A stretch of 64,000 nucleotides of DNA from an uncultured cyanobacterium (GCA_963718615.1 OY970368.1:960001-1024000), one strand, 5' to 3'. Positions 29,727 to 52,333 are shown, counted from the stretch's first letter. Translations and numbers: made by a program. Notes: generated by a model from the letters alone, not told the origin.

Positions 29727-30341
29727 CTACAGGAGATACAGGAGGATAAAGAGGATAATCCAGACCACATCCACAAAGTGCCAGTAGAGCTCCGCCGCTT
29801 CGATGCCGAATTTGTGGTCAGCGCGGTAGTGGTTGGGTTGGCGCGATCGCCACAGCACCGCCAAAATCGTCAAAACCCCCACCAACACATGGAGCCCGTG
29901 AAATCCAGTCAGCACATAAAACGTGCTGGCAAATAGATTATCCTTCAGTCCAAAGTTGAGATTGCTGTACTCATAGAGCTGGCCCGCCAAAAAGACGATT
30001 CCCAGGACCGCCGTAATCCCAAACCATTGCTGAACCCCTTTGACGTCATTCTCATGAATAGCGTCCTCTGCCTTGTGAATGATAAAGCTACTGCTAATCA
30101 GAATCAGCGTATTGATCCCTGGCAAGAGCAGCTCCAGCTCCGGCATCTGGTCTTCCGGCAGAGACGAAACCGCCCGAAAGGTCAAATAGGCCGCAAACAA
30201 CCCCAGAAAAATCATGCTCTCTGCCACCAGGAACATAATTAATCCAAAGACCCGATGGTCCGGATGCTCCTCGTGGTGGGCAACAGAGGCAGTGCCCGCC
30301 ATATTCAACGTCGTTTCCGTATCAATCGCAGAACCTTGCAT
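29727..30341 (-). CDS. ctaE: Cytochrome c oxidase subunit III
   Basis: TGFHGLHV, YWHFVDVVW. Confidence 0.95.
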   Translation of the reverse strand: MQGSAIDTETTLNMAGTASVAHHEEHPDHRVFGLIMFLVAESMIFLGLFAAYLTFRAVSSLPEDQMPELELLLPGINTLILISSSFIIHKAEDAIHENDVKGVQQWFGITAVLGIVFLAGQLYEYSNLNFGLKDNLFASTFYVLTGFHGLHVLVGVLTILAVLWRSRQPNHYRADHKFGIEAAELYWHFVDVVWIILFILLYLL

Positions 30342-30385
30342 AGGTCAAAACCAGCAAAACATTAAAGACCAACTCACCAGGAAAA

Positions 30386-32062
30386 TTATGATTTCGCTGC
30401 CCACAAATCAGACCCGCGAATCGCTCCAATCCGCTTCCGCCCGGACTTTGTGCCATAGGCATAGGGATCCTTAATCAACGGCGGTTCACCAAACCAATTT
30501 TCGACCGGCGGTGGCGAAGTCGTCTGCCACTCCAACGTCAAGGCATTCCAGGGATTGTCCCCGGCCTTTTCGCCCTTGGACCAGGACCAAATCGCATTGA
30601 CAATAAACGGAATGGTGGAAATTGCTAGCAGAAACGACCCCACCGTACAAATCAAATTCACCGTGGCAAATTGGGGATCATACTCCGCTACCCGGCGCGG
30701 CATGCCGTTGAGCCCCAGCCAATGCATTGGCATAAAGCAGAGGTTGAAACCCAAAAACGTCAACACAAAGTGAATCCGGCCCCAGGTTTCATTCATCATT
30801 CGTCCCGTCATTTTTGGGAACCAGTGATAAATCCCGGAATAGAGTCCAAAGACGCTGCCCCCAAACAACACATAGTGCAAATGGGCGACGATGAAATAGG
30901 TATCGTGAACGTGAATATCAAAGGGGACCGAAGCCACCATCACGCCACTAAGACCGCCAACCACAAACATTGAGACAAACCCCATGGCAAACAGCATGGC
31001 GCTGTTGAGCCGAATTTTGCCGCCCCAGAGGGTTGCCACCCAGCTAAAGACCTTGATCCCCGTGGGCACCGCGATAATCATCGTCGCCACCATGAAGAAC
31101 ATGCGCAGCCAGGCCGGGGTGCCGCTGGTGAACATGTGGTGCGCCCAGACGATTAGACCTAGAAAGCTGATGGCGAGACTGGAGTAGGCGATCGCCTTAT
31201 ACCCAAAAATCGGCTTACGCGCATGAACCGGAATAATCTCCGAAATCATCCCAAACACCGGCAAAATCATGATGTAGACCGCCGGGTGGGAGTAAAACCA
31301 GAACATGTGCTGGTACACGATGGGATCGCCACCGCCAGCCGGGTTAAAGAAATTCGTGCCGACCATCAGGTCAAAACTGAGGAGCACTAAGGCCCCAGCC
31401 AAAACCGGCGTAGAGATCAAAATCAGCGCCGAAGCCGCCAGCATCGCCCAGCAAAACAGGGGCATTTGGGTGAGCTGAAGATTGGGTCGACGCATTTTCA
31501 GGATCGTCGTCGAAAAGTTGATCGCCCCCAAAATTGAAGAGGTTCCCAGGAGCAAAACGCTCAGGATCCAAATCAGTTCACCGGTCTTGCCATTGACCAA
31601 ACTCAGCGGGGGATAGGACGTCCAACCCGAGCCCGGTGCTTCCACCAGAAAGCTGCCGATGAGCAATAAACCGGCGGGCGGGATCATCCAAAACGCCACG
31701 GCATTCAGCTTTGGAAACGCCATGTCCCGTGCCCCAATCAGCAGCGGGATCAAATAATTTCCAAAGGCTCCGGTGCCTGCCGGAACGATCCAAAGAAAGA
31801 TCATCACCGTGGCATGGACGGTAAACAGTTGGTTGTAGAGTTCTCGGCTAACGAGGTCAACCTGGGGAGTCGCGAGCTCAGCCCGCACCACAGTGGCTAA
31901 AATACCCCCAATCAAATAGAAAATAAACGACGTCACCAAATACTGAATACCAATGACCTTATGGTCTTCGCTAAAGCTAAAGTAGGTGCGCCAAGTTGTG
32001 GGTTTATGCTTGGGCTCCGGGGGAGAAGCGCCTGGGAGAGATTCTTGTAGGACTTGGGTCAT
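30386..32062 (-). CDS. ctaD: Cytochrome c oxidase subunit I
   Basis: WFYSHPAVY, VWAHHMF, VAHLHYVL. Confidence 0.97.
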   Translation of the reverse strand: MTQVLQESLPGASPPEPKHKPTTWRTYFSFSEDHKVIGIQYLVTSFIFYLIGGILATVVRAELATPQVDLVSRELYNQLFTVHATVMIFLWIVPAGTGAFGNYLIPLLIGARDMAFPKLNAVAFWMIPPAGLLLIGSFLVEAPGSGWTSYPPLSLVNGKTGELIWILSVLLLGTSSILGAINFSTTILKMRRPNLQLTQMPLFCWAMLAASALILISTPVLAGALVLLSFDLMVGTNFFNPAGGGDPIVYQHMFWFYSHPAVYIMILPVFGMISEIIPVHARKPIFGYKAIAYSSLAISFLGLIVWAHHMFTSGTPAWLRMFFMVATMIIAVPTGIKVFSWVATLWGGKIRLNSAMLFAMGFVSMFVVGGLSGVMVASVPFDIHVHDTYFIVAHLHYVLFGGSVFGLYSGIYHWFPKMTGRMMNETWGRIHFVLTFLGFNLCFMPMHWLGLNGMPRRVAEYDPQFATVNLICTVGSFLLAISTIPFIVNAIWSWSKGEKAGDNPWNALTLEWQTTSPPPVENWFGEPPLIKDPYAYGTKSGRKRIGAIRGSDLWAAKS

Positions 32063-32148
32063 GGGAGCATGGAATAGGCTTTTGCGAGAATAAGCTGGGA
32101 TAGGACTAGCGATGGAACTAGTGACGCTGAAGTGAACGGTTTACAGCA

Positions 32149-33135
32149 TTAGGATCCAGAGCCATGCAGGCTGTGCATCATGGAAGGGCTCATGTCCATG
32201 GCCATGGCCTCGGCAAAGGGAGCCAGAAACTCACCCTCAGGATTAGCGGCGATCGCCTCTCCCGCCAGCTCTTCACCGCCATTCAACATCGCCACCTGGC
32301 TTTGCACCCAACTGTCATAGGCTTCCGGCGTTTCCACAATCACCTGGGACCGCATTGCGCCATGGTAACTGCCGCAGAGCTCCGCGCAGACAATGGGATA
32401 GGTCCCCGGTTCCGTTGGCACGAAGCGCAACTCCGTTTGCCGCCCCGGAATGGCGTCCTGCTTTAGCCGAAACTGGGGTACCCAAAACGCATGGAGCACA
32501 TCCTGAGCTGAAAGATTGAGCTGGACATCGCGATTAGCGGGGATGTGGAGTTCACCGCTGATAATGCCATTGGGATAATTAAAAATCCAGGCGTACTGGA
32601 GTCCGGTCACATTCACCACCACATCCGCCGGTTTTTCCTCACCCCCCGGTCGAGCCCCGATCCCACCGGCGTACTGGGAATCTTGCGAGGCTGCTTGAGC
32701 TTCACCACTGGAGGATTCATAGGCCATCATCTGGGCGGTAGGCGCACTGTGGGCGCTGTGTCCGCCGTGGTTCATGGGGTCGAGACCGCCCATGCGGTTG
32801 TAAATGTCAAAGCTGTAAACCGAGACCCCCAAAACCAAGACAGCGGGGATCGCCGTCCAGAGAATCTCTAGGGGAATATTGCCATGGATGGGAGGGCCAT
32901 CGGAGTCATCCCCAGGCCGCTGGCGAAACTTGATAGCTGCAATCACAATCAGGCCCTGAACCAACAGGAAGAGGCCCATGGCGATCGCAAACATGACATT
33001 GAACAAACTGTCAAAACCACCGGCATTTTCAGCAGCGGCGAGGGGTAGAAGATTATTATTTTGCCCAAACCAAAGGCTTAGGAGGGTAATGGCAATCCCC
33101 GCAAGCAGGGTCAGGATAGTCGTTGGAATATTCAC
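32149..33135 (-). CDS. ctaC: Cytochrome c oxidase subunit II
   Basis: DVLHAFWVP, CAELCGSYHGAM CuA motif. Confidence 0.96.
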   Translation of the reverse strand: MNIPTTILTLLAGIAITLLSLWFGQNNNLLPLAAAENAGGFDSLFNVMFAIAMGLFLLVQGLIVIAAIKFRQRPGDDSDGPPIHGNIPLEILWTAIPAVLVLGVSVYSFDIYNRMGGLDPMNHGGHSAHSAPTAQMMAYESSSGEAQAASQDSQYAGGIGARPGGEEKPADVVVNVTGLQYAWIFNYPNGIISGELHIPANRDVQLNLSAQDVLHAFWVPQFRLKQDAIPGRQTELRFVPTEPGTYPIVCAELCGSYHGAMRSQVIVETPEAYDSWVQSQVAMLNGGEELAGEAIAANPEGEFLAPFAEAMAMDMSPSMMHSLHGSGS

Positions 33136-33737
33136 AGCAGGCGATCGCAGTCTCTACGAACACAATTTGGCAAAATTTGGCCAAGGATTTGGCCCATGAG
33201 CTCTGGCCCATAACTAAACAGATGGGCCAGAGGAGGCAAGCTGTCGTGACCTAGGATTGCCCCCATTTTTTTAAGGTTCGCCTCCAATAAACCGTTCCTC
33301 TCCTACCACGGTAAAACAGTCTTCCGGGTGCGTGGGTGCTAAAACCAACATCTTTAACAATTTATTTCGACGATATTGGTTTTCCAGAGATAAATTTTGA
33401 TCATCCGTCAACCTTGGGGGCATGCTATTGCCTTCTTCATCAGTTTAGGGAGTTTTGCAAATCTTAGGGGGTTCTCAAAACTTAAGAAAAATTTAACTTT
33501 TCTTTTAGCCAATCAACGTGCTGAATAACGTTCTGAATTTTGTAGTGCCCAAATTGTCGCGAAAGTCTGCAAAAAATCAAAAGAAAGCGCGATTTTTCGC
33601 CCTGCTTGAGATTCTCTCGCTACAGTAGGGGTATCCAAAAGTTAAGCGCTGAAGCGAAAACGTTCAAGATCGAGTCGCACCGTATCGCCTTTCCCATCAC
33701 AACCCGTTGTGCTTACGCTTGCAACTATTCCGTCCCC

Positions 33738-34691
33738 ATGACTGAATCTCTTTCCCCTTTTGCCTCTCGGCTTCCTTTATTCTCGATTGTTGCGAAACCC
33801 GCACCGGATCAGGTCCATTGGTTAGCGGGACGATTAGCCGTTGCTACGCTGATTTTGATGGCTATTGGCAGCGCGACCCGTGTGATGAATGCCGGACTCG
33901 CCTGTCCCGATTGGCCTCTGTGCTACGGCCAGTTCCTACCCAGCCAGCAAATGAATGTGCAGGTTTTTTTGGAGTGGTTCCACCGACTGGATGCTTCGGT
34001 GGTCGGCTTTGGCACCATTGCCCTGCTGGGTCTTGCGGTTGGGAAGCGGCGATCGCTCCCTCATTGGGTGCCCTGGGCCGCAGCCTTGGCCTTATTTCTG
34101 GTGGTCTTTCAGGGTATTTTGGGCGCGCTGACGGTGACAGAACTCCTACGGTTTGACCTGGTCACGGCCCATTTAGGCACTGCCCTTTTGTTTTTCTCGG
34201 TGCTGCTGATGCTTACCCTTGGCCTCATGCCCTACCAAGCCGTTGGCTCAGCCGGGCGGCTGCGCTGGTTAGGTTTGGTCGCGACGGTCTTGGTCTATGG
34301 TCAGAGTCTCTTGGGCGGTGTGGTGGCATCCCGCTGGGCGCTGCACCAGTGCTTTGGCGGAGGGGAACTCTGCCTGGTAATGAATAGCCACATTGCTGGG
34401 GTTTTGCCCGCCACCCTGGCGACCCTGGGCCTGGTGGTGTGGACGGGGCGATCGCCTGCCCTTTCCCGGCCCCTGCGCCAGCTTGCCCTAGGAGCCGGAT
34501 TTGCCCTGCTGGCTCAGGTTTGCCTCGGGGTTTTGGCGCTGCGGCTGCGGCTCCAGGTTGAGCCTCTGACCGTCACTCACCAACTGGTTGGAGCCGTTCT
34601 ACTGGGGCTTTTGCTGGCCTTTACGATTTTGGCTTGGCGGGATCATCTCGAAACCCCCACCATTCTGCCCACTGAATCCCCATCCCTCTAA
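33738..34691 (+). CDS. ctaA: Heme A synthase (COX15/CtaA)
   Basis: [21 protein letters not shown]. Confidence 0.92.
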
Positions 34692-34705
34692 TTTTTGACG
34701 GCACT

Positions 34706-35698
34706 ATGCAAGAAACGTTTAATGCAGCCCCTCGTCTCCACGCCAACGGCCTGCAAGTTCTTCAAAGCTATTACCAACTGACTAAACCGCGCATCATTCT
34801 TCTGTTGCTGATCACGACCACCGCAGGCATTTGGGTGGCTTCCCAGGGCCAAGTGGATACCACGCTGCTCTTGGTGACGCTGGTGGGAGGAGCCCTGGCC
34901 TCGGGATCGGCCAATGCGATCAACTGCTACTACGATCGCGACATTGATTTCATCATGGAACGCACCCGCTGGCGACCCATCCCCTCGGGCCGAGTGCAGC
35001 CGAGGGACGCGCTGATTTTTGCCGCTGGGTTGGCGATCGCCTCCTTTGGTTTGCTCACCCTGTTTGCCAATCTACTGGCGGCGTTCTTGGCCATGGCCGG
35101 GATCGTTTTTTACGTCTTGATCTATACCCATTGGCTCAAGCGCCACAGTGTCCAAAATATTGTCATCGGGGGAGCGGCAGGAGCCATTCCGCCGTTAGTC
35201 GGCTGGGCTGCGGTCACGGGCGACTTGAGCTGGGCTCCTTGGCTGATGTTTTTAATTATTTTCCTTTGGACTCCGCCCCATTTTTGGTCCCTGGCGCTGA
35301 TGATTCGCGATGACTATGCCTCCGTCGGTGTTCCCATGCTGCCGGTGGTTGCCGGAGAGGAAGAAACCGCTTGGCAAATCTGGGTCTATTCGATCTTGCT
35401 CGTGCCTGCCACGCTTTTGCTGGTGTATCCGGTGGGGAGCAATGGTCTGATTTATGGGGCAAGTGCTCTTCTCCTCGGGGTCCAGCTTTTGGTGAAGGCT
35501 TGGCGATTATTGCGAGACCCGAGCGATCGCGTTCTGGCTCGTGCCCTCTTCAAATACTCGATCCTTTATCTGATGCTGCTTTCCGCCGCCATGGTCGTGG
35601 ATGTCCTGCCTAACATTGCCGCCTACTCCGAGCAGCTCCTCGGCGAAGTTCAAGGGGTGTTGGCCGCCATTCCCATCAATCAATTTCTCAGCCTGTAG
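34706..35698 (+). CDS. ctaB: Heme o synthase (protoheme IX farnesyltransferase)
   Basis: [34 protein letters not shown]. Confidence 0.95.
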
Positions 35699-36480: not shown

Positions 36481-37781
<1,301 letters not shown>

Positions 37782-38002: not shown

Positions 38003-38851
38003 ATGTCTAATTCCCCCACGCAACGAAGCGAAACCCGCTGCTTCGGAGGCTCCTTAGGTTTTTATCGTCATTGGTCTATGGTTTGCCAATGCGAAATGAA
38101 TTTTGCGATCTATCTACCTCCTCAAATCAAAAAAGAGCCTGCTCCTGTTTTGTACTATCTGTCGGGGCTCACCTGTACGGAGGAAAACTTTATTACAAAA
38201 GCTGGGGCACAACGCTATGCGGCGGAGCAGGGACTGATTCTCGTGGCTCCGGATACCAGTCCTCGGGGGTTGAATTTGCCGGGGGACGCGGAAGCTTGGG
38301 ATTTTGGGGTAGGAGCGGGCTTTTATGTAGATGCGACGCAAGCGCCCTGGCATGACCATTACCGGATGTACAGCTATGTGGTTGAGGAATTGCCTGGGTT
38401 GATTGGGGCACATTTTCCTGCGGATATCAGTCGCCAGGGGATTTTTGGCCATTCCATGGGAGGTCATGGGGCGTTGATTTGTGCGCTGCGCAATGGCGAT
38501 CGCTACCGTTCGGTCTCAGCCTTTTCACCGATCGCGGCTCCGATGCGATCGCCCTGGGGTCAAAAAGCCTTTACCCATTATCTGGGGCCAGACCCGACCA
38601 ACTGGAAAGGGTACGATGCCAGCGAACTGGTGGGTACGGCTAATTTTGGTGGCAGTATTTTGATTGACCAGGGAACAGCCGATGGCTTCCTGGAAACCCA
38701 GCTCATGCCCCAGGTCTTTAAGCAAGCCTGCGAAGAGGCTGGACAGTTGCTGACGCTGCGGATGCAGCCGGGTTATGACCACAGCTATTACTTCATTGCC
38801 ACGTTTATGGAAGACCATATCAAACATCACGCGACAGCTTTACTGGATTAA
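38003..38851 (+). CDS. fghA: S-formylglutathione hydrolase
   Basis: LSGLTCTEENF, GHSMGGHG, GYDHSYYFI. Confidence 0.95.
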   Translation: MSNSPTQRSETRCFGGSLGFYRHWSMVCQCEMNFAIYLPPQIKKEPAPVLYYLSGLTCTEENFITKAGAQRYAAEQGLILVAPDTSPRGLNLPGDAEAWDFGVGAGFYVDATQAPWHDHYRMYSYVVEELPGLIGAHFPADISRQGIFGHSMGGHGALICALRNGDRYRSVSAFSPIAAPMRSPWGQKAFTHYLGPDPTNWKGYDASELVGTANFGGSILIDQGTADGFLETQLMPQVFKQACEEAGQLLTLRMQPGYDHSYYFIATFMEDHIKHHATALLD

Positions 38852-38863
38852 AACCTGTGTACT

Positions 38864-39871
38864 TCAGTCAACTCCTGAGGTCAGAATGAGATTGAAAAGA
38901 TATCCTACACTAATGATTCCTAAGGTTGTGATGCTAACAAACAAAGTCAAAAGCTGAGGACGAAGGACCCTCTTGAGAATGATCATTTGTGGCAGGGACA
39001 AGGCTGTGACAGCCATCGTAAAGGACAACACCGTGCCCAAAGGCATACCTTTATTGACTAAGGCTTCTGCAATGGGGAGGACCCCAGCCACGTTGGTGTA
39101 GAGGGGAACCCCCATCAAAACAGCAATGAGCACGGCGAAGGGATTGCTGGGGCCTGCCCATTGGCTAATTAGATCGGTGGGGGCATAACCGTGAATTCCA
39201 GCGCCGATGGCAATGCCGATAACGACATAGGGCCAAACTGAGCTGAGGATTTCAACGGATTGTGATTGAGCACTTTTCCATCGCTGTGCCCAGGTTTCTG
39301 GAGCTAAATCAGTCTCTATGTCTAAGGCTTTCATCTGATAGGTATCCCGAGCTTTTAAGATTAAGGGATCCACCCATTTCTCTAGATTTAACTGACCGAT
39401 GATAAACCCAGAAACAATGGCTAAAGTTACGCCAAAGCCGATGTAGAGAAGCGTTGCTTGGAGACCAAATAAACTCCAAAGCAGAAAGACAGCGATCGCA
39501 TCCACCATTGGTGCCGAAATCAAGTAAGAAAACGTGACACCGAGGGGAACTCCTGCCCCTAAAAATCCGATAAATAAAGGAACAGCAGAGCAGGAGCAAA
39601 AGGGGGTAAATGCGCCCAATAAACCCGCTAGAATATTGCCTGAAATTGTCAATTTTCCCGCCAGAAACTGGCGCACTTTTTCGGGGGAGAGAAAACTTTG
39701 TAGTATCCCAATGACAAAGCTAATGACGACCAGTAAGCTTAAAACCTTCGGCACATCATAAAGGAAAAAATGGAGACTGGCACCGAGTTGAGAGTCAGGA
39801 GATAGCCGAAATACGTAGCTGACAATCTGGGTGGCAAGCCAGTCGAAGGGATAAAAGAGATCAAACATCAT
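38864..39871 (-). CDS. ArsP/DUF318 family permease
   Basis: TPFCSCSAVP, GVPLY, ALSLPQMIIL. Confidence 0.88.
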   Translation of the reverse strand: MMFDLFYPFDWLATQIVSYVFRLSPDSQLGASLHFFLYDVPKVLSLLVVISFVIGILQSFLSPEKVRQFLAGKLTISGNILAGLLGAFTPFCSCSAVPLFIGFLGAGVPLGVTFSYLISAPMVDAIAVFLLWSLFGLQATLLYIGFGVTLAIVSGFIIGQLNLEKWVDPLILKARDTYQMKALDIETDLAPETWAQRWKSAQSQSVEILSSVWPYVVIGIAIGAGIHGYAPTDLISQWAGPSNPFAVLIAVLMGVPLYTNVAGVLPIAEALVNKGMPLGTVLSFTMAVTALSLPQMIILKRVLRPQLLTLFVSITTLGIISVGYLFNLILTSGVD

Positions 39872-39904: not shown

Positions 39905-40147
39905 CTAGACTTGTAAGAGGGATTGAATCTCTGTGCTGCTCATAACCTTTCCTTTGCTGACGATTTTGCCATTGATCGCTAAGGCTGGGGTGGATAGGAT
40001 GCCACGCTGGGCAATTTCAAGGGGATCGGTAATGTGCAAGACTTCTGCGTCTAAATTGAGGTTGGCGATCGCCTCCTTCGCATTCGCTTCCAGTTGTTGA
40101 CATTTCTTGCAGCCTGTTCCTAATACTTCAAGTTTTAGCTGAATCAT
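39905..40147 (-). CDS. Small redox-active disulfide protein (thioredoxin_3)
   Basis: LGTGCKKC, TPALAING. Confidence 0.88.
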   Translation of the reverse strand: MIQLKLEVLGTGCKKCQQLEANAKEAIANLNLDAEVLHITDPLEIAQRGILSTPALAINGKIVSKGKVMSSTEIQSLLQV

Positions 40148-40228: not shown

Positions 40229-40660
40229 CTAAAGCTCTTGGGGGTCTTGCTCTAGAACAATGCATTGATGCTGTGGATCGGGGTGGTCTAGATTTTGAGC
40301 ACATTGTTCAAGGAGCGGAGCCAGTTCGTTGTGGAGAGATTGCAATTGTTGGATTTGCGCTTGAATGGCTTGGGTCTTTTGCTGGAGCCGTTGATATACT
40401 GCTTGACAGGTGAGCGATCGCCCCTCCTTCAGCGCCAGAATTTCCTGGATTTCCCCCAAGCTTAGCCCCAAGGTCTTTGCCCTGGTGATAAATGCCAGCC
40501 GCTCCACATCCGCTGGACTATAGAGCCGATAACCGGATGCATTGCGTTGAGGAATTGGAATGAGGCCGATCCGCTCATAAAAATAAAGGGTCTGCGGATT
40601 AAGTCCTAATTTTTGCGCCACCTCCCCCACTTGAAACATCGATTCTGTTGCTTTACCCAC
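40229..40660 (-). CDS. MerR-family heavy-metal-responsive regulator
   Basis: VGEVAQKLG...YERIGLIP...GYRLY; Cys in TCQ and a C-terminal C...C. Confidence 0.92.
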   Translation of the reverse strand: MGKATESMFQVGEVAQKLGLNPQTLYFYERIGLIPIPQRNASGYRLYSPADVERLAFITRAKTLGLSLGEIQEILALKEGRSLTCQAVYQRLQQKTQAIQAQIQQLQSLHNELAPLLEQCAQNLDHPDPQHQCIVLEQDPQEL

Positions 40661-40686: not shown

Positions 40687-40719
40687 ATCCTAATCCTTAA
40701 TACCCAGGTATAAGGTCAA
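40687..40719 (-). promoter_or_regulatory. MerR-type promoter/operator of merR-trx-arsP
   Basis: TTGACC-N21-TAGGAT with dyad CCTTATACC-t-GGGTATTAAGG. Confidence 0.7.
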
Positions 40720-40793: not shown

Positions 40794-41762
40794 TTAGAGC
40801 AATGAGATTCGGGTTTCATAGAAAGGCTCCACTGGACCATTCACCACCATAGCCCCTACGGGTCCTGCGGCCTGCTTAAAACGAGGGTCGAGATGGGAAT
40901 TTTCGTGGTCCCACACGGACTCCCATACCCCATGCATTAGATAAGCCCTCAAGCTTCCATCGGGAAAGGCATTGCGGAGGATTTCTGTGGTCACAGCTTT
41001 ATGGTAATGGCGATTATTGGGAGCACCGGGAAGCCCGATGCCATCCTGGGTGGTGGTGGGCTGGTAGGTTTGCTGGGCGATCGCGAGCAGTTCTGCGGTT
41101 TTAGCCTCAAAGAGGAGGAGGTCAGCATCTTGGATGAAGACATGATTTTCGACGGTCACATAGCCGCGATCGGGCAAATCTGCGGGACGGCGCAAAAATG
41201 CCAAAATCTCTTCGGGTTGGCGATAAATGGCGTTGCGATCGCCCGCCACCACCGTCTGATAAATCCCTCGATAGGATTCCATCGCCATCGGCGTTTTTTG
41301 AGGACCCTCTGGCGTCTGGCGATAGGCATAGAGGTGAGGGGCAATCACTGTGTCAAACCAGCGATCGACCTGGGCTTTTTGTAAGTGCTCATAGTCCGAA
41401 AACCGCACAAACAGCGAATAGAAATAGGGCAATGACCCATCAGCCACCGCATCCGCATAAGCCGTGGCCAACCTGCCCTTGTAGGCTTCCGGGTAGTTTT
41501 TTACCATCGTCGAGTCCCCCGTCATTTGTTTGAGCGAAAGACTGAGGAAACCAGAGGCCTTTTGTAGCGATCGCGCCTGGGTTTGAATCGCCCCCATCAA
41601 AGCCTGATTCTCCGGGACAGCCACGCGAATTTCTGCATAAAACGTTATGGCTCCCGTTGGGGCCTGAGCCACTGTCTGCGCCGCTTGGGCAGGAGATGTG
41701 ACTGCAAAACCCACAGTGGAGAGTCCAGCACCCGCACACAGAAAATGACGACGATTGAGCAT
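40794..41762 (-). CDS. Tat-exported sulfur oxygenase reductase-like / dimeric alpha-beta barrel protein
   Basis: NRRHFL Tat signal and AQA cleavage site; WESVWDHENSH...GPVEPFYE. Confidence 0.6.
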   Translation of the reverse strand: MLNRRHFLCAGAGLSTVGFAVTSPAQAAQTVAQAPTGAITFYAEIRVAVPENQALMGAIQTQARSLQKASGFLSLSLKQMTGDSTMVKNYPEAYKGRLATAYADAVADGSLPYFYSLFVRFSDYEHLQKAQVDRWFDTVIAPHLYAYRQTPEGPQKTPMAMESYRGIYQTVVAGDRNAIYRQPEEILAFLRRPADLPDRGYVTVENHVFIQDADLLLFEAKTAELLAIAQQTYQPTTTQDGIGLPGAPNNRHYHKAVTTEILRNAFPDGSLRAYLMHGVWESVWDHENSHLDPRFKQAAGPVGAMVVNGPVEPFYETRISLL

Positions 41763-41797: not shown

Positions 41798-41829
41798 ATG
41801 CTAAACCCTATAGTGAGGTACAAGGTCAA
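41798..41829 (-). promoter_or_regulatory. MerR-type promoter/operator of the SOR-like gene
   Basis: TTGACC-N20-TAGCAT with dyad ACCTTGTA-N6-TATAGGGT. Confidence 0.75.
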
Positions 41830-41941: not shown

Positions 41942-44173
41942 ATGGCGAAAAAACACAGCTTTTCTTCCCGGATTCAAAAGGCCATTCATTCTGAAGATAC
42001 AATTCATAACGGTTCTGCCAACGACTCCTTTGATCAGGTCTTAGCAAGAGCTCGCGTGGGGCGACGGGGGTTTCTCAAAGGCAGTTCATCCCTGGTGGCG
42101 GCTTCTATGCTGGGAACAGGGCTGTCTTTTCTGGCCGACTCAGCCCATCCTGCCCGGAAAGTTGCTCAAGCTACTACAAAGGCTTCTCTGAGCTTCAATC
42201 CAGTGGCCAAGACTATCACTGATAGCCTGACTGTTCCGGAGGGATATACGGCGAGAGTTTTATTGGCAACGGGTGATCCGATTCATCGGGATGTTACTCC
42301 CTATAAGAATGATGGGACCGACGATGACTTCGCAGGGCGGGCCGGCGATCACCATGACGCGATGCAATACTTCGGCATGGACTCCTCGGGTACGAAATGG
42401 GACTCTAAGGGTAGCGATCGCGCCCTCCTCTGTATAAACCACGAAGTTTGTGAAGACCTGGGCTTCATCCATCCCAATGGCCCAACGGACTATGGCCCCG
42501 AAGCGATCGCCCCTCGTCCTCCCACAGAAATCGATAAGGAAGTTGATGCCCATGGAGTGAGCGTGATTGAAATCCTGCGGCAGGGTGACACTTACCAGAT
42601 CAATCGTGACTCCCGGTACAACCGACGAATCACGGGCACAACCCTTTTTGAAATCACGGGGCCTGCTCGTCGCAGCCCGATGATGGCGACCGTTTTTTCT
42701 CCCAGTGGCGAACAGACCCGTGGAACCCTGAACAATTGCGGACATGGATACACGCCTTGGGGAACCTTTCTCAGTGGCGAAGAAAACTGGGCTGGATATT
42801 TCCATCGTCGCGAAGCGGATACGGCCAGAACCACCAAGGACGTAGCCTCGTTCAAACGCTACGGTATTGGTTCAGCGACTTCGGGGCGTTACAACTGGTC
42901 ACGAGCTGGAGCCACCGATAGCACCGACCACTATCGCCGTTGGGACGTCGGACAAACAGGCAGCAGCGCTGAGCAAGATTTTCGGAATGGGGCCAATGCC
43001 TTTGGTTGGGTTGTGGAAATTGATCCCTTTCATCCCAATGCTACTCCTAAAAAACGTACTGCCCTAGGTCGATTCGCCCATGAGGGAGCCTGGTCTGCTC
43101 CAGTGGTTGCTGGACAGCCCCTTGTGTTTTATATGGGCGACGATGCTCGCAACGAATACATCTATAAATTTGTTTCCGCCGCTGCCTGGGACCCTCAAGA
43201 TGCCACCAGAGGGCTGGAGGCTGGCAACAAGTATCTGGATGCCGGTACATTGTATGTGGCCCAATTTCAGGATGATGGGACTGGGGAGTGGTTGCCCCTA
43301 ACCCTCAACAATCCCAAGATTGCCAACTACACGACCTATCCCTTCGCGGATGAAGCTGATGTGGTAATCAATGCCCGTATCGCCGCCGATGCCGTTGGAG
43401 CCACGAAGATGGACCGTCCTGAGTGGGGCGGGGTCAACCCGGCCAATGGAGAGGTTTATATCACGCTGACCAACAATGTCTCAAGCAGTAATGGGCGAGG
43501 GTTTAAGACTCCCCTTGATGCCGCTAATCCCCGTTTCTATGGGGACGAGAAAGGCTCCAAAACCACTCAGGGGAATGTTAACGGCCACATCCTTCGTTGG
43601 CGTGAAACCGCTAGCAACTCTGCCGCGCTGTCCTTTTCCTGGGATGTTTATCTATTTGGAGCCCAGGCCGACGCAGAGGCGGACGTCAACCTTTCGAATC
43701 TCACGGATGAAAACGATTTTTCAAGCCCTGATGGCCTTTGGTTTAGCGAAGCAGTACCCGGTTTGCTATGGATTCAAACCGATGATGGTTATTACACCGA
43801 TCGTACCAATTGCATGATGCTAGCGGCAATCCCCGGAGCCGTGGGGGATGGTGGCACAAAAATGGTGACCAATAAGGCTGTACCCACGAATAGCAATTCG
43901 GATCAAACCCTCCAAACCTACCTGGGGCAGCCCGCTAGCCCAATGGTGTTACGGCGCTTTTTGGTTGGTCCTCGGGATTGTGAAATCACTGGCATCACTG
44001 AATCGCCCGATGGCAAGGTCCTTTTCGTGAATATTCAGCACCCCGGCGAGAATAGCCCCTCGGTTACTGATCCGAGTCAATTTACAAGCCATTGGCCGGA
44101 TGGGGGAAATGCGCGTCCCCGCTCTGCAACGGTCGTGATTACGCGCAATGATGGCGGGAAGATTGCGGTTTAG
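41942..44173 (+). CDS. phoX: PhoX-family alkaline phosphatase (Tat)
   Basis: RRGFL Tat motif, TPWGTFLSGEEN, ALGRFAHE, MDRPEW, FVNIQHPGE. Confidence 0.93.
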   Translation: MAKKHSFSSRIQKAIHSEDTIHNGSANDSFDQVLARARVGRRGFLKGSSSLVAASMLGTGLSFLADSAHPARKVAQATTKASLSFNPVAKTITDSLTVPEGYTARVLLATGDPIHRDVTPYKNDGTDDDFAGRAGDHHDAMQYFGMDSSGTKWDSKGSDRALLCINHEVCEDLGFIHPNGPTDYGPEAIAPRPPTEIDKEVDAHGVSVIEILRQGDTYQINRDSRYNRRITGTTLFEITGPARRSPMMATVFSPSGEQTRGTLNNCGHGYTPWGTFLSGEENWAGYFHRREADTARTTKDVASFKRYGIGSATSGRYNWSRAGATDSTDHYRRWDVGQTGSSAEQDFRNGANAFGWVVEIDPFHPNATPKKRTALGRFAHEGAWSAPVVAGQPLVFYMGDDARNEYIYKFVSAAAWDPQDATRGLEAGNKYLDAGTLYVAQFQDDGTGEWLPLTLNNPKIANYTTYPFADEADVVINARIAADAVGATKMDRPEWGGVNPANGEVYITLTNNVSSSNGRGFKTPLDAANPRFYGDEKGSKTTQGNVNGHILRWRETASNSAALSFSWDVYLFGAQADAEADVNLSNLTDENDFSSPDGLWFSEAVPGLLWIQTDDGYYTDRTNCMMLAAIPGAVGDGGTKMVTNKAVPTNSNSDQTLQTYLGQPASPMVLRRFLVGPRDCEITGITESPDGKVLFVNIQHPGENSPSVTDPSQFTSHWPDGGNARPRSATVVITRNDGGKIAV

Positions 44174-46096: not shown

Positions 46097-47779
46097 CTAT
46101 ACGGGGCTTAATTGCTTGCTAATTTTGTACATCTCATCATGATTTAGCTTTAAGAGAGGCATACGAATTAAACTCCCATTTAGAGAGATGCTTCCTTGTT
46201 CCCACTCTACTACTGATCTGTTGTAGATATCTATTAAAAGTCTATCTGTAACCGTCTTAACGTCTGCAAGATTCAAGTTTTCGGAGGATAGGATTCTATG
46301 TACGACTCCGTTAAGCAATTGAAGATTAAGCACAGTAATATCTTTTTTTAGCTTCCAAACTGAATGAGTGCCAAGACCAGCACGGCACAATAGTACACTT
46401 ACACATTGAACGTTCTCGACTCTTATTTCAAATATTTCCGATATTACAGAATCACGCTCATCTTGAGGTAAATCTTGAAAACGGTTAAGTTGCTCTATTC
46501 CCTCTTTTGAACGATTTTCAACAGCTTTTGTCATTCTTGCACCTTGTGGTGGAATAGCTGCTTTCGCTTGAATATGTACCACTGTATTAGCGCTTGATTG
46601 ATAGATGAGTAAATCAAATTCTCCCTTGCTCCAATTTTTATTAGAGACGATCCTTAAACCTGGTAGTCTTTCCCATATTTCTAAAGCTTGCTTTAAAAGT
46701 GTGGGTTCAAGATGCTGTGAAACAATATTGTTGAATTGAGTCGTATTGCATCTGTTAAGAACATAGAAAATGTTTCTTGTTGCCAACATTGATCGAAGAA
46801 TATATGGGCTAAATAAATAAGAATGCGAATAATCTATTAAAGGTGGGAAAAAACCTTCACCAGAATTTTCAAAATTCTGATTGACAACATCAATAGTGAA
46901 GAAATTTAATATATTTTCAATTGCAGAACTTTTAACGTTTGTTAAAGCCATTAATAACCTTATAAAAAAGCTTTTAGCATTAAAAACTGCAACCCATTCG
47001 TAAAATTCGTGAAATAGAGTTTCCTTTCTTGTTTCACTGCTTTCATTAAGCCAAAGAAATTCTAAAGCATTTGCAAGACCAATACTGTAGTCTGCATATG
47101 CGAATAGTGCAGCCCTGATCTTACAAAACTCTTCCCATGTTGTCCCAATAGATATTTGGAAAGCGTTTGGCTCTAAAATTGGTATTTCCTTAAAACTATT
47201 TAAACGATATTGAAATAGATCGGCTAATACTCTACACATCAAAGCCATATTAATATTAGGAAGTTGATCCGCTAGTTCAATAAATTCTTGCTTTAAATTA
47301 GGAGCTTCACCAACTAAGAACGTTAAGCTAAGTTCAGTTAAAAGAACATCGTACTCTTCAGCTCTTGAAAATTCTTCATTGGGATGTATAAGCTCAAACC
47401 CTTCCTCGATTTTTCTGACCTCATAGTAACCGCGCCGTACTTCAGGCATAAGTTCGCAAAAATGGGCATAGGATACTAGCTCTCGAAAATCTTTGACGAA
47501 CAGTGCAGTAGCTGAAAAAGCATCGATTGCGCTAACTCCTATTTGTGAAGTGCATTTTCTCAGCAAAGGGATTAAGTAAGAAAGTCTACTACTTAATGCT
47601 TCACCTTCTGCTTGATTCTTAGATATGTTGTGACCAAAGCGCTCACCCTGAATCAGAATGTCGATTACCACAAATAAGCTTGTTAAAACACTCCTAAGCG
47701 GTAACTGAAACATATCAGACTGAACAATTTTGTTGTCAATTTCACCTTCGAAAGAAAAAAGATCATCTCGATCGCTCAT
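46097..47779 (-). CDS. AT-rich cassette protein with a putative C-terminal PD-(D/E)XK nuclease
   Basis: 560 aa; GEFDLLIY...VHIQAK motif. Confidence 0.55.
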   Translation of the reverse strand: MSDRDDLFSFEGEIDNKIVQSDMFQLPLRSVLTSLFVVIDILIQGERFGHNISKNQAEGEALSSRLSYLIPLLRKCTSQIGVSAIDAFSATALFVKDFRELVSYAHFCELMPEVRRGYYEVRKIEEGFELIHPNEEFSRAEEYDVLLTELSLTFLVGEAPNLKQEFIELADQLPNINMALMCRVLADLFQYRLNSFKEIPILEPNAFQISIGTTWEEFCKIRAALFAYADYSIGLANALEFLWLNESSETRKETLFHEFYEWVAVFNAKSFFIRLLMALTNVKSSAIENILNFFTIDVVNQNFENSGEGFFPPLIDYSHSYLFSPYILRSMLATRNIFYVLNRCNTTQFNNIVSQHLEPTLLKQALEIWERLPGLRIVSNKNWSKGEFDLLIYQSSANTVVHIQAKAAIPPQGARMTKAVENRSKEGIEQLNRFQDLPQDERDSVISEIFEIRVENVQCVSVLLCRAGLGTHSVWKLKKDITVLNLQLLNGVVHRILSSENLNLADVKTVTDRLLIDIYNRSVVEWEQGSISLNGSLIRMPLLKLNHDEMYKISKQLSPV

Positions 47780-48846: not shown

Positions 48847-50427
48847 CTATAACCTGCACGCTTCTAAGCGAGAGAAAAGACTTGGCACTCCTCTAACCCA
48901 ACCTCCCGGTCGGGGTAAATGTCCTAACGGAGCCGATGAATCAAAGATCAAATCATAATACGGTATCCAAATACTTTTTAATCGCCATCCGACGCGGTCG
49001 CCAAACTTTTCATAAGTACTATCATCATAATTGTCATCAAGCTTGCCACCACATTCTAGATAAATTTGCTTCTGAATACTGAAACCAAATTTACCGCTAC
49101 TGTATTTCACCCACAATTCATCAAGGGTGCGGAGATCTAAACAGGGGAACTGTCTTATTTCTTCCTCCCTAACCCAGTCGCTTTCTCTCCGACCAATAAG
49201 CTTGAGTATGATCTTATAAGTTTCATAATCAGCTTCTTTCCATCTCCCAGCCTTTAACAAATCTCGGAGTAAAGTATAGTCCAAACCCCGCTCAGAACTA
49301 AGGTTATCGTGGGATGCTTCAACAGTCAAAGATGAATGTTGGGTGGAAGCAGACTGCTCAGCAACTACCTGTGCTTCAATTGCTGCAATATCTTCATCTC
49401 GTAAACCTAAATATTGCCGATAGTCTTTCAGATCCCTTAGAGATCCTTCACTTATAGGATTCTCCACCTGCATTACCTCAAGCAATGCCTCTTTATATTC
49501 TTGCAGTTTGCGTCGGTACTCTCGATGAGGTTGTAAAACCTCAACCTCAATTGCATGTGCCTCCGCTTCCGACAAGCCAAGTTGTTGTTTCAATACGTGC
49601 AAGACTCTACGAGCTACAGAGGATAATTCATCACGACTGGCAAAACGTTGTAATTCTTTGCGATATCTTAGTTTTGAATTGTCTACAGGTACTTTGGCTA
49701 GCAGAATCTTGTAACCTTCCGCAGCAGTGTAAAACATAGGAGTCATTGCTGGAGCAGCCGCTCTCACTTTGGCTTGAACGTACTCATGTAATTCATCAAC
49801 AGCAATAAAACCATCACTATCTAAATCGGCTGCTCCCGTTGCAATCCCCTCAACTAAATAACGGGTATAAAGTGACAGGTCAGATTCCTCCTGCCAAAAA
49901 GCATACTGGGTAGAGCTAGAGGAGGTTAGAATAGCACGTCCAACACCACCTAACTGTGCCCGGATATCGATATGGTCGTCGTCTCTGACAGGTAAAATCT
50001 TTACATCTCGACCAAATGTTCCACTAAAATCGCAATCTAAAATGACTACCTGTCTACGAGAACGACCATTACTCATCATCTCTTGAATGAATCTAGCTGA
50101 AACAGCAGTAGATTTTGCGAATCTATCCTTATCCTTTCGAGTGTTCCGAGTAGCTAAATAAATCTCTTCATTGTCGTCTTTAATTCCATGACCAGAGTAA
50201 TAGAATAATACCAAATCATTATTCTGGCTCTTAGAAAATAAATCATCTATGGCTTCTTCCATCTCTTGTCTACTTGGATTAGCTAGTAGAGAAGCCTGGT
50301 CAAATCCACCTACTTCGGGGTCTCGTAAAACGCGAGCCATTGCCTCGGCATCTACTCCTGCGCTTGGGAGTGGATTTAACCCCAGTTCATACTCACTCAC
50401 CCCTATCAATAGTGCAATTTTAGCCAT
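48847..50427 (-). CDS. Caspase (peptidase C14)-GUN4 fusion protein
   Basis: ALLIGVSEY, FYYSGHG, LDCDFSG; GUN4 DYTLLRDLLKAGRWKEAD...GKFGFSIQK. Confidence 0.88.
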   Translation of the reverse strand: MAKIALLIGVSEYELGLNPLPSAGVDAEAMARVLRDPEVGGFDQASLLANPSRQEMEEAIDDLFSKSQNNDLVLFYYSGHGIKDDNEEIYLATRNTRKDKDRFAKSTAVSARFIQEMMSNGRSRRQVVILDCDFSGTFGRDVKILPVRDDDHIDIRAQLGGVGRAILTSSSSTQYAFWQEESDLSLYTRYLVEGIATGAADLDSDGFIAVDELHEYVQAKVRAAAPAMTPMFYTAAEGYKILLAKVPVDNSKLRYRKELQRFASRDELSSVARRVLHVLKQQLGLSEAEAHAIEVEVLQPHREYRRKLQEYKEALLEVMQVENPISEGSLRDLKDYRQYLGLRDEDIAAIEAQVVAEQSASTQHSSLTVEASHDNLSSERGLDYTLLRDLLKAGRWKEADYETYKIILKLIGRRESDWVREEEIRQFPCLDLRTLDELWVKYSSGKFGFSIQKQIYLECGGKLDDNYDDSTYEKFGDRVGWRLKSIWIPYYDLIFDSSAPLGHLPRPGGWVRGVPSLFSRLEACRL

Positions 50428-52333
50428 TGTCTATCTCATGAGTAACAAATGCTAGTAAACTGTGAATCTCATCATTATCAGACTCTATATCTAATGCCTT
50501 TCTGAGTTGCTCCTTTGCTAGTTCAAACTCTTTTTGCAGTCTCAAATCTCGACCGTACCCTAACAGTGCTTGAATATAGTTTTCTTTAGTTCGTACTGAA
50601 TCAATCTGAAATCCCCTTGCATAAAGTGCTGACGCTTTACCAAAATCCTCAATCTCTAAGCACGCTGCTGCCATATTAAGTAGAGCACTAAAATGATTGG
50701 GGTTTAAATCTAGTACCTGACTGTATAGATCAAGCGTAGTTGTCATCTCACCCTTCTGATGCAACTCCATTGCTCCTTGATAAATACGATTAGCCTCTGG
50801 CTCCAACTTCTCCAACTCTCTTATTTCCTGGCGGAGTGGATAACGTTTGATTAACCAACGGCGGACAAGTTCAATTTTTACTTTATATGCGGGTGCTTTG
50901 GAATCTTTTATAAAATCTAGGAAATTCCATTCAACCAGTCGTTTTTCAGCATCAACTAATGGTTTAGTCCGAACAACTCCATATCCCTCCAACAACTCTA
51001 GTGGTAGAACTAATTTAGATTCTACTCTGGGTAGCCCAAGTGTTAGAACCTGTCCCACACGAACGTGCTGTAATTCTGTACTGACTACAACTGCCCCTAG
51101 TCTTGGATCATAGGAAGCGATCCAGGCTGTAGAGGGTAACTCACGCATCAGATAGCTATATAACCAGGTTGGAGCACGACCCGTAATGACTATTCCAATG
51201 TTCGTATCAATCTCTTCAGGTAGCTCTAGATTTACGAGATCCTGCGGCTCGATAACCCCACTTTCAGAGAGAAGTTCTATGGTTAACCACTGATATCTTA
51301 AACCTTCATAATCTTGCTGTTCACTTAATTGAAAGCGAACTGAGGCATTAGATGTTTGACTAATGTTACTTTGAATATCTAAATCACTGACTTCTTTGTT
51401 GGCTTTCTTTTGAGCTTCTGCTACAGCCGAAAAGACAACCCGTTCAGGAATGGGCAACCCATCTCGAAACCATGCTAAACCCGCTTCACCAATCTCAATT
51501 GCTCTATCTACAATTCTTTCTACATTTTCACAAATAATTTTCCAGCTTTGTTGCTCTCGTGCGTATCCAAAAAGCGTAAAACATATTAATTGTGTAAAGT
51601 AAGGATGTCCTGCTGAGAGGTTAAGAATTGCTTGTATAGCTGCTGAATCGTACTCTAATATTTCTTTAGCAGGTTCAACAATTAAACGCTTCGCACTCGT
51701 TTCATCAAGCAAACCAATCTCTTGACTAGGCGCTTCTTTGAATAAACTGAGTAACTTTGGCATGTCATCCAGTCGTCGTCCCACAACCGGAATGAGAAAA
51801 AGTTGTTTCTGTCGATGAATGATTGACTGTAAGTAGGGAAAAAAGTGTTCAACTGCTGTCTCTGGGTTATAGCTACTTAAGACATCAAACTCATCCATTA
51901 ACAAGACTAAGTTTCTGCCTCGCAATGCTTCATAAACTTGAGACAGAAAAATGCGAGAGAAAGCACTTGAATCTTCTTTCAGTTCCGTTGCTGAAGGTAA
52001 TGTTATCTCTTCTAATGGCAGTTCAAGTTGATCGACAATTTCCATAGCAAGATAGTGCAACACATCACTAAGAGGTGTTTTGCTTCTATCTTGAAGATCA
52101 AAGAGTACAAAAGAAAACTCGTTCAATCCGACACACCTTGGAATTTGAGAGAGTACAGAAGATTTGCCAATACGCCGTTGACCATGCAGCAAAATAACTT
52201 TTGCACCTGACTTCAGATTATCCTTAACGAATTGAAATAAATTTTCTCGCCCAAAAAACAGATCTGGCTTGTCGATCGGACTGCCAATGTCATAAGGATT
52301 TCTCCGAGATTGTGGAGACATCATAATCATCAA
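50420..52333 (-). CDS. STAND-like ATPase with inserted Csx3/Crn3-like domain and C-terminal TPRs
   Basis: NPY...FFGRE, GQRRIGKSS, LLMDEFD, GHPY; GIVITGRAPTWLY...YDPRLGAVVV; TPR helices. Confidence 0.8.
   Translation of the reverse strand: MMIMMSPQSRRNPYDIGSPIDKPDLFFGRENLFQFVKDNLKSGAKVILLHGQRRIGKSSVLSQIPRCVGLNEFSFVLFDLQDRSKTPLSDVLHYLAMEIVDQLELPLEEITLPSATELKEDSSAFSRIFLSQVYEALRGRNLVLLMDEFDVLSSYNPETAVEHFFPYLQSIIHRQKQLFLIPVVGRRLDDMPKLLSLFKEAPSQEIGLLDETSAKRLIVEPAKEILEYDSAAIQAILNLSAGHPYFTQLICFTLFGYAREQQSWKIICENVERIVDRAIEIGEAGLAWFRDGLPIPERVVFSAVAEAQKKANKEVSDLDIQSNISQTSNASVRFQLSEQQDYEGLRYQWLTIELLSESGVIEPQDLVNLELPEEIDTNIGIVITGRAPTWLYSYLMRELPSTAWIASYDPRLGAVVVSTELQHVRVGQVLTLGLPRVESKLVLPLELLEGYGVVRTKPLVDAEKRLVEWNFLDFIKDSKAPAYKVKIELVRRWLIKRYPLRQEIRELEKLEPEANRIYQGAMELHQKGEMTTTLDLYSQVLDLNPNHFSALLNMAAACLEIEDFGKASALYARGFQIDSVRTKENYIQALLGYGRDLRLQKEFELAKEQLRKALDIESDNDEIHSLLAFVTHEIDNG

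Follow-up and report, generated by a model that had tools for sequence, protein, structure and literature searches.

A Cys-less relative of sulfur oxygenase reductase, predicted to be exported, encoded next to a MerR regulator and an ArsP-family permease in an uncultured cyanobacterium

The window, a 64,000-nucleotide stretch from an uncultured cyanobacterium (GCA_963718615.1, OY970368.1:960001-1024000), raises the question of what a protein would do that keeps the iron-ligand motif of sulfur oxygenase reductase (SOR) and carries none of the cysteines of that enzyme. The gene lies at 40794..41762 on the minus strand, as do the promoters and genes of the cluster that adjoins it, and encodes a CT0912-like protein of 322 amino acids plus a stop, as assigned from the open reading frame (ORF) list, the translation, Pfam, and a match to PDB 3GN6. 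A sequence-only reading had taken this ORF, strand unstated, for a twin-arginine (Tat)-exported, domain-swapped, Cys-less SOR relative and a new metalloenzyme or metal-binding cage. The ORF is real, and by script we found every quoted motif in its place: RRHFL, FYAEIRV, AIQTQARSLQKASGFL, and GDS start at residues 4, 41, 58, and 82, WESVWDHENSH starts at 280 (giving H286 and H290), and GPVEPFYE starts at 309 (giving E312). We propose, as a reading with about an even chance of being right, that the protein works in the periplasm of this cyanobacterium as an iron enzyme, within a module for detoxifying soft metals or metalloids, and oxidizes the expelled species at a SOR-type site. The neighboring genes suggest a detoxification enzyme for arsenic-like toxic elements, and MerR control together with linkage to an ArsP-type permease and to arsenic genes, which the sequence-only reading had missed, is the strongest functional clue.

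Family, export signal, and iron-site motif

Both domains of the protein score above their Pfam gathering thresholds and follow each other, N to C, as in the CT0912-like family. The N-terminal ABM-like domain (residues 38-125; 41388..41651; PF21931, 127.3 bits against a cut-off of 27, E 3.3e-37) contains an invariant KQMxGDSTMVKNYP loop, and the C-terminal domain (residues 171-318; 40809..41252; PF22087, CT0912-like_C, 202.8 bits against 27, E 3e-60) is homologous by hhalign to the catalytic N-terminal half of SOR. NCBIfam returned no model for the protein. The best solved relative, PDB 3GN6 (phmmer E 1.9e-100 over residues 28-318), is a 2009 structural-genomics structure from Chlorobium tepidum titled "CT0912, ORFan protein with a ferredoxin-like domain repeat." An AlphaFold model of the window protein built with 40 homologues (mean predicted local distance difference test, pLDDT, 86; predicted template modeling score, pTM, 0.84) superposes on 3GN6 in Foldseek with a template modeling (TM) score of 0.83-0.91 and 55-57% identity. 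CT0912 thus belongs to the same family over its full length, in sequence, in fold, and in both Pfam domains; the window copy differs in its predicted MerR control and its own operator. Because CT0912 itself has no assigned function, the match names the family and not an activity. As a sequence, the window gene is unremarkable within a family already catalogued in Pfam with a solved structure, so the claim of a "new" metalloenzyme did not hold, though no function is on record; what is novel here is the functional reading, not the gene.

The family is small and patchily distributed. A word-indexed search gave 343 clusters at 90% identity, with both Pfam domains in all clusters listed, and every homologue that carries a name from its source is "hypothetical" except one "quinol monooxygenase YgiN." Searching the family profile against 1.84 billion representatives retrieved 53 proteins, of which about 16 are full length, with no second family among them; since these matches include no SOR, the link to SOR is invisible to plain HMMER. 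Members with 50-80% identity to the window protein occur across at least seven phyla. We found no fused or longer forms of 565-2000 amino acids, no tblastn match in 72,556 plasmid records, and, in literature searches, no paper on the family. The gene is single copy in its own genome, and the family is present in 3 of 61 cyanobacterial genomes searched (its own counted) and in none of the seven searched genomes of the same taxonomic family, which are 62-93% complete. This patchy distribution suits an accessory resistance function. We observed no island signature: GC content does not depart from its surroundings at 38.8-41.8 kb, and the window has no tRNA.

The protein is predicted to be Tat-exported and periplasmic in this cyanobacterium, in line with the sequence-only reading. 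Its twin-arginine signal peptide (residues 1-27; 41682..41762) comprises NRRHFL at 3-8, a hydrophobic stretch, and AQA at 25-27, taken as the probable cleavage site, and AlphaFold pLDDT is below 50 over residues 1-31. The only Cys of the 322 residues is residue 9, within the signal peptide, so that the mature protein is free of Cys as claimed. A Shine-Dalgarno-like AAGGGAG precedes the ATG. A twin-arginine motif ahead of the first domain recurs in 39 of 59 family loci, followed in some Campylobacterales and Thiotrichales copies by a lipobox-like Cys. In two metagenome bins (L062, 7965-8968; L060, 8001-9004) the gene is split into two ORFs, a frameshift or assembly error on low-coverage contigs.

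SOR is the nearest characterized relative by fold. In Foldseek, all of ranks 4-12, directly after 3GN6, are SOR chains (E 6e-11 to 6e-10, TM 0.56-0.60); the chains matched were 6QKM, 6QMV, 6QPA, 6QNE, 2CB2, 6QO0, 6QJC, and 6M35, with 3BXV at rank 15. Two-domain antibiotic biosynthesis monooxygenase (ABM) proteins score lower (0.47-0.48), and chlorite dismutase and dye-decolorizing peroxidase reach 0.39-0.40. ESM features, which we treat as a lead only, give SOR as the top three clusters at 0.87. The Pfam SOR model (PF07682) stays below threshold, with 12.4 bits against a cut-off of 25 over residues 277-318 only. For profile-profile comparison with hhalign we used a 30-sequence SOR alignment and, as the reference, a SOR gene (L071:1489-2421) from an Acidithiobacillus genome that also holds a CT0912-like gene. 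Residues 278-316 align to SOR 79-119, which sets H286, H290, and E312 on H87, H91, and E115; these correspond to His86, His90, and Glu114, the iron ligands named in the excerpted text of bioRxiv 10.1101/2020.05.03.074773. That text also gives Cys31 as essential and Cys101 and Cys104 as supportive, and the SOR motifs given in the sequence-only reading were checked against it and against the fetched gene. The 2-His-1-carboxylate motif is therefore kept and the persulfide Cys lost: the column of the essential Cys is F209, two residues after the invariant H207, in a region of low alignment confidence, and the columns of the other two are likewise non-Cys in the alignment of the C-terminal half. 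The Acidithiobacillus genome (G002; L071 and L073, with L038) contains two full SOR genes (E ~1e-144) together with a signal-less CT0912-like gene; therefore the two families coexist and do not replace each other.

To ask how the two halves relate to those of SOR is to ask whether a domain swap took place. The C-terminal half against the SOR N-terminal half scored 39.7 (E 6.7e-6, probability 85%, 114 columns), above all 30 column shuffles of the SOR half (mean 14.9, maximum 24.8), and was the only pairing above shuffled controls. The C-terminal half against the SOR C-terminal half scored 20.1, and the N-terminal half against the SOR N-terminal half 16.6. The N-terminal half against the SOR C-terminal half scored 17.2, a value reached by 2 of 30 shuffles and not significant, in an alignment that is topologically sensible (LKQM on MKQF, NYPE on NPPE). 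The internal halves scored 17.5 against each other in the CT0912-like family and 29.4 in SOR. Folded alone (pLDDT 91), the N-terminal half retrieved 3GN6 and then only generic ABM proteins such as SnoaB, the best of these at E 4e-3; the 38 matches listed from ranks 1-50 include no SOR. The proposed domain swap is thus half supported, because only the C-terminal half is SOR-specific: the alignments place the metal-site domain, of the kind found in the catalytic N-terminal half of SOR, on the other repeat, while a true circular permutation is not shown, the N-terminal half being at chance level by profile and, by fold, finding no SOR among the matches listed.

The generic character of the N-terminal half bears on a different explanation, namely that the protein is an ABM-type enzyme of oxidative-stress defense, either a cofactor-free monooxygenase for an organic substrate or a heme-binding protein related to the chlorite dismutase/dye-decolorizing peroxidase group. 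The single homologue named YgiN and the TM scores of chlorite dismutase and the peroxidase would fit it as well. We consider this explanation very improbable, since SOR is the clearly better structural match, the motif in common is the SOR iron site, and no biosynthetic or aromatic-degradation genes recur nearby.

Conservation is consistent with catalysis. An alignment of 40 homologues that share 50-80% identity with the window protein has 60 invariant columns, including H207, H277, H290, D285, E287, E260, E312, R46, K78, Q79, M80, K95, R120, R272, and R294; M86, M276, and H286 are nearly invariant. H290 and E312 are kept in 40 of 40 aligned homologues and H286 in 39, and we regard H286-x3-H290-x21-E312 (40827..40907), on the basis of this conservation and the alignment to the SOR ligands, as a putative mononuclear iron site. 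Many invariant columns are Arg, Lys, Ser, Thr, or Asn, and the set as a whole would suit an enzyme pocket for an anion. Cys is absent, from about 45 residues before the KQM motif to the end, in 95 of 115 homologues anchored on that motif.

The same residues could instead belong to a non-catalytic periplasmic protein that uses conserved His, Glu, and Met to buffer or hand on metal expelled by the permease. Invariant H207, H277, H290, and M80 and nearly invariant H286, M86, and M276 fit such a protein, His/Met sites being typical of periplasmic copper proteins. Nevertheless, we give it only a small chance of being correct: 60 invariant columns across phyla exceed the needs of a binding site, the motif matches a catalytic iron site, signal-less cytoplasmic versions exist, and Tat export would suggest that a cofactor is loaded before export.

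Predicted MerR-type control and gene neighborhood

The gene is preceded by a predicted MerR-type promoter (41798..41829) with TTGACC, a 20-nucleotide spacer holding an imperfect dyad, and TAGCAT. A second copy of this promoter/operator (40687..40719) lies ahead of merR, a thioredoxin-like gene, and a permease. Each copy has a -35 box, a spacer of 20 or 21 nucleotides with the imperfect dyad CCTTATAC..GTATAAGG, and a TAnnnT -10 box, and the promoters adjoin merR, as in MerR-activated promoters. In the 64 kb, where 0.02 occurrences of the motif TTGACCTTRTACCT would be expected, there are exactly two, one before the CT0912-like gene and one before merR. The motif also precedes the orthologous gene in four of six related cyanobacterial loci (L001, L003, L005, and L006) and the merR or thioredoxin unit in two (L001 and L005). 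On the minus strand the CT0912-like gene is followed after 134 bases by merR, after a further 82 by the thioredoxin-like gene, and after 34 by the permease. From this layout we predict two transcription units, the CT0912-like gene and merR/thioredoxin-like/permease, with a common operator.

The MerR-family regulator (40229..40660; Pfam MerR_1 and MerR-DNA-bind) has three conserved cysteines, 85, 120, and 133, kept in six of six cyanobacterial loci. The small thioredoxin-like protein (39905..40147; CKKC; Pfam Thioredoxin_3) is of the MTH895/ArsE family, exceeds the NCBIfam TIGR00412 cut-off (92.7 bits versus 62), and belongs to a cluster in which 28 of 28 members have CxxC. The permease (38864..39871) is of the ArsP family (Pfam ArsP_1, 4.6e-66), has a TPFCSCS motif, and matches the NCBIfam models SaoE and SO_0444, both below cut-off. 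MerR control and permease linkage would also be expected of the metal-binding protein considered above.

Two further observations concern the genes that flank this cluster. Beyond the permease, on the plus strand, a zinc alcohol dehydrogenase gene (36514-37623; ADH_N and ADH_zinc_N) and an esterase-family gene (38003-38851) stand side by side, presumably resembling the thiol-dependent formaldehyde detoxification pair adhC/fghA. MerR-type NmlR regulators control pairs of this type in other bacteria; the window MerR matches NmlR weakly (2.2e-16, below cut-off). On the other side, divergent from the CT0912-like gene, lies a gene for a PhoX alkaline phosphatase (41942-44173, plus strand; Pfam 6e-127), which has an RRGFL twin-arginine motif too; PhoX did not recur beside the family gene in the other loci.

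A species-level genome collection gave 70 loci of the family. To place the family in its genomic context, we called ORFs within 7 kb of the gene in the window and in 64 loci, and grouped these ORFs with BLASTP. In the resulting 65 loci, an ArsP-family permease is found in 28, Thioredoxin_3 in 28, both in 26, and either in 30, and the permease has a C[ST]C motif in 27 loci. ArsR follows with 16 (11 of the 16 with CVC or CTC), then a glyoxalase fold with 14, SigZ-like ECF sigma factors with 12, a low-molecular-weight-phosphatase-type ArsC cluster with 11, MerR with 6, and ArsB with 5. CDF exporters (11) and RND pumps (8) are metal pumps and thus would favor the metal-binding protein too, while CMD/AhpD-like (16), OsmC-like (12), and HbpS-like (12) neighbors would suit the generic ABM-type enzyme. 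Because the glyoxalase cluster is heterogeneous (of 19 ORFs, 5 have vicinal Cys, 6 are Cys-less, and several are spurious overlapping frames), we recounted the arsenic markers strictly and found ArsC with a P-loop in 7 loci and, in 5 each, ArsB and ArsI-type proteins that have vicinal Cys. Counting every locus with a strict marker or with the permease/thioredoxin gives 36 of 65.

Several of these neighborhoods are compact enough to be operons. In L039 the order is ArsI-ArsR-ArsC-permease-CT0912-Trx; from ArsR to Trx the genes are spaced by -3 to 13 bases, and the ArsI and ArsR ORFs overlap by 180. Tightly packed gene strings are also seen in L024, L011, L030, and L054-L057. A Cys-less glyoxalase-fold gene (EFHLSLRV) and a single-Cys CMD/AhpD-like gene adjoin the family gene in L007, L010, L024, L048, and L050; this pair, the tightest partners in Acidocella, Acidithiobacillus, and Thiomonas-type loci, makes up a second module type that has no permease. 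For 14 loci without labeled neighbors we found no alternative conserved context (of these, we listed the eight longest and annotated five). In the excerpted text of PMC10092412, a Nitratiruptor cluster of permease, thioredoxin-family, and ArsC genes is induced by Cd and Cu; its genes may be homologous to those of the window, and we use it as a lead only. A candidate from a Thioalkalivibrio arsenite transcriptome, as described in the excerpted text of PMC6620896, is a SoeABC-like molybdoenzyme unrelated to the CT0912-like family, and we set it aside.

The neighborhoods also speak to another explanation, that the protein is a sulfur-compound oxygenase, a soluble exported counterpart of SOR for free polysulfide, sulfite, thiosulfate, or similar species in place of a persulfide bound to cysteine, with the metal-gene association secondary. 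SOR is the nearest characterized enzyme in fold and motif, a rhodanese (13 of 65 loci) or SQR-like gene (5 of 65) is nearby in 17 of 65 loci, and ArsR-family regulators also include persulfide sensors. Moreover, by our own count of names, about 33 of the 70 host genomes are named sulfur oxidizers (e.g. Thiomonas, Acidithiobacillus, Thiocapsa, Halothiobacillus, Campylobacterales, and Sulfobacillus), a habitat confounded with metal load. We nonetheless think this explanation improbable. All three SOR cysteine columns are non-Cys and most homologues are Cys-free after the signal; the predicted regulator of the cyanobacterial copies is a MerR that has three Cys and a profile like those of metal sensors; the ArsC, ArsB, ArsI, and ArsR-CVC neighbors are arsenic-type genes; no Sox, Dsr, or Hdr cluster is among the recurrent neighbors; and a sulfur-oxidizing host is hard to separate from a metal-rich habitat.

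Proposed detoxification function and other features of the window

Returning to the proposed detoxification enzyme, we infer the metal, the use of oxygen, the substrate, and what each partner does as follows. A thiol-reactive soft metal or metalloid would bind the three-Cys MerR sensor and turn on both promoters. The ArsP-family permease would expel the toxic species, and the small thioredoxin would keep the cysteine pair of the permease reduced. The CT0912-like protein would be loaded with iron in the cytoplasm, exported folded, and use oxygen in the periplasm at its SOR-type site to oxidize the expelled species to a less toxic and less permeant form. The substrate would most likely be a trivalent arsenical, a thio-arsenical, or a similar oxyanion.

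Several observations weigh against this proposal. Trivalent arsenicals usually bind proteins via thiols, of which the CT0912-like protein has none, and Chlorobium tepidum, the source of 3GN6, is an anaerobe and so a poor fit with obligatory oxygen use. The twin-arginine signal is missing in 20 of 59 family loci, including Mycobacterium, Thiomonas, and Chromatiaceae; therefore the reaction is not tied to the periplasm. The MerR protein falls below every NCBIfam cut-off, and its best matches are Hg, Cd/Pb, Zn, and Cu sensors. The strict arsenic markers (ArsC P-loop, ArsB, ArsI vicinal Cys, and ArsR-CVC) occur in only 14 of 65 loci, 19 of 65 loci have no metal-type neighbor, and the unlabeled loci that were inspected hold unrelated genes (such as an integrase, a transposase fragment, or a glycosyltransferase). 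A metatranscriptome, in which 7% of sampled words matched, covered only 39409-39691 in the permease and nothing on the CT0912-like gene. Finally, the excerpted text of bioRxiv 10.1101/2022.07.06.499078 places Cu/Zn exporters in the ArsP family as well.

A narrower version, which we consider doubtful as a specific claim, is that the CT0912-like family is a Cys-free SOR offshoot that oxygenates methylarsenite, arsenite, or thio-arsenicals outside the cytoplasmic membrane after ArsP-type export. Thio-arsenicals dominate sulfidic, arsenic-rich waters. If true, this offshoot would be a missing periplasmic oxidation step of arsenic resistance and would explain the concentration of the family in sulfur oxidizers and cyanobacterial metagenome bins. 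More broadly, the protein is a candidate for a new enzyme that detoxifies metalloids or soft metals, and it would also show how the SOR active site can work without a cysteine that carries a persulfide. The combination of a SOR iron site with ArsP/ArsE/ArsR/MerR modules makes this small, strongly conserved family directly testable.

The rest of the window contains features of separate interest. A 637-residue STAND NTPase with a CRISPR-associated Csx3 domain and TPR repeats (50420-52333, minus strand) has as its downstream neighbor a fusion of a caspase-domain protein with GUN4 (48847-50427, minus strand); the two may be a defense or signaling pair. A 560-residue ORF without a Pfam match (46097-47779, minus strand) lies in a stretch of 35-39% GC, compared with about 50-55% around it, and may be foreign DNA. 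An ordinary respiratory cluster at 29727-35698 has the genes for subunits II, I, and III of cytochrome c oxidase and, after them, CtaA-like and UbiA-family (CtaB-like) genes.

Comparison with known systems

SOR (PF07682; e.g. 2CB2, 6QPA, and 6M35) and the CT0912-like protein are both two-domain ABM barrels with a common His-x3-His...Glu motif within GVWxxxxxHExxH...GPxEPxYE. They differ in where the site is seated, on the C-terminal repeat in the CT0912-like protein and on the N-terminal repeat in SOR, and in the spacing from His to Glu, which is x21 in the former and x23 in the latter. Cys31, Cys101, and Cys104 are found in SOR only. Whereas SOR is a cytoplasmic hollow sphere of 24 subunits with an N-terminal catalytic domain, and the fetched SOR has no signal, the CT0912-like protein of the window has a Tat signal. 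The single-domain ABM oxygenases (SnoaB and putative antibiotic biosynthesis monooxygenases) resemble the N-terminal half in fold (TM 0.44-0.48, E 4e-3 to 2e-2), but they are dimeric, metal-free proteins of about 100 amino acids that act on polyketide substrates, whereas the CT0912-like protein joins two domains in one chain and has a metal-type motif that is conserved.

The arsenic-resistance genes of the ArsP, ArsE, ArsI, ArsC, and ArsR types are repeated operon partners of the family and not its homologues. We know of no ars gene that encodes a CT0912-like protein, and our literature searches found none. The closest parallel in logic is the CueR-CopA-CueO system of Escherichia coli, in which a MerR-family sensor is likewise combined with an inner-membrane exporter and a Tat-exported periplasmic oxidase, which renders what is expelled less harmful. 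The families are unrelated to those of the window proteins, CopA being a P-type ATPase and CueO a multicopper oxidase. It is because of this analogy that we postulate oxidation of the exported species, with the CT0912-like protein taking the place that CueO has in the copper system.

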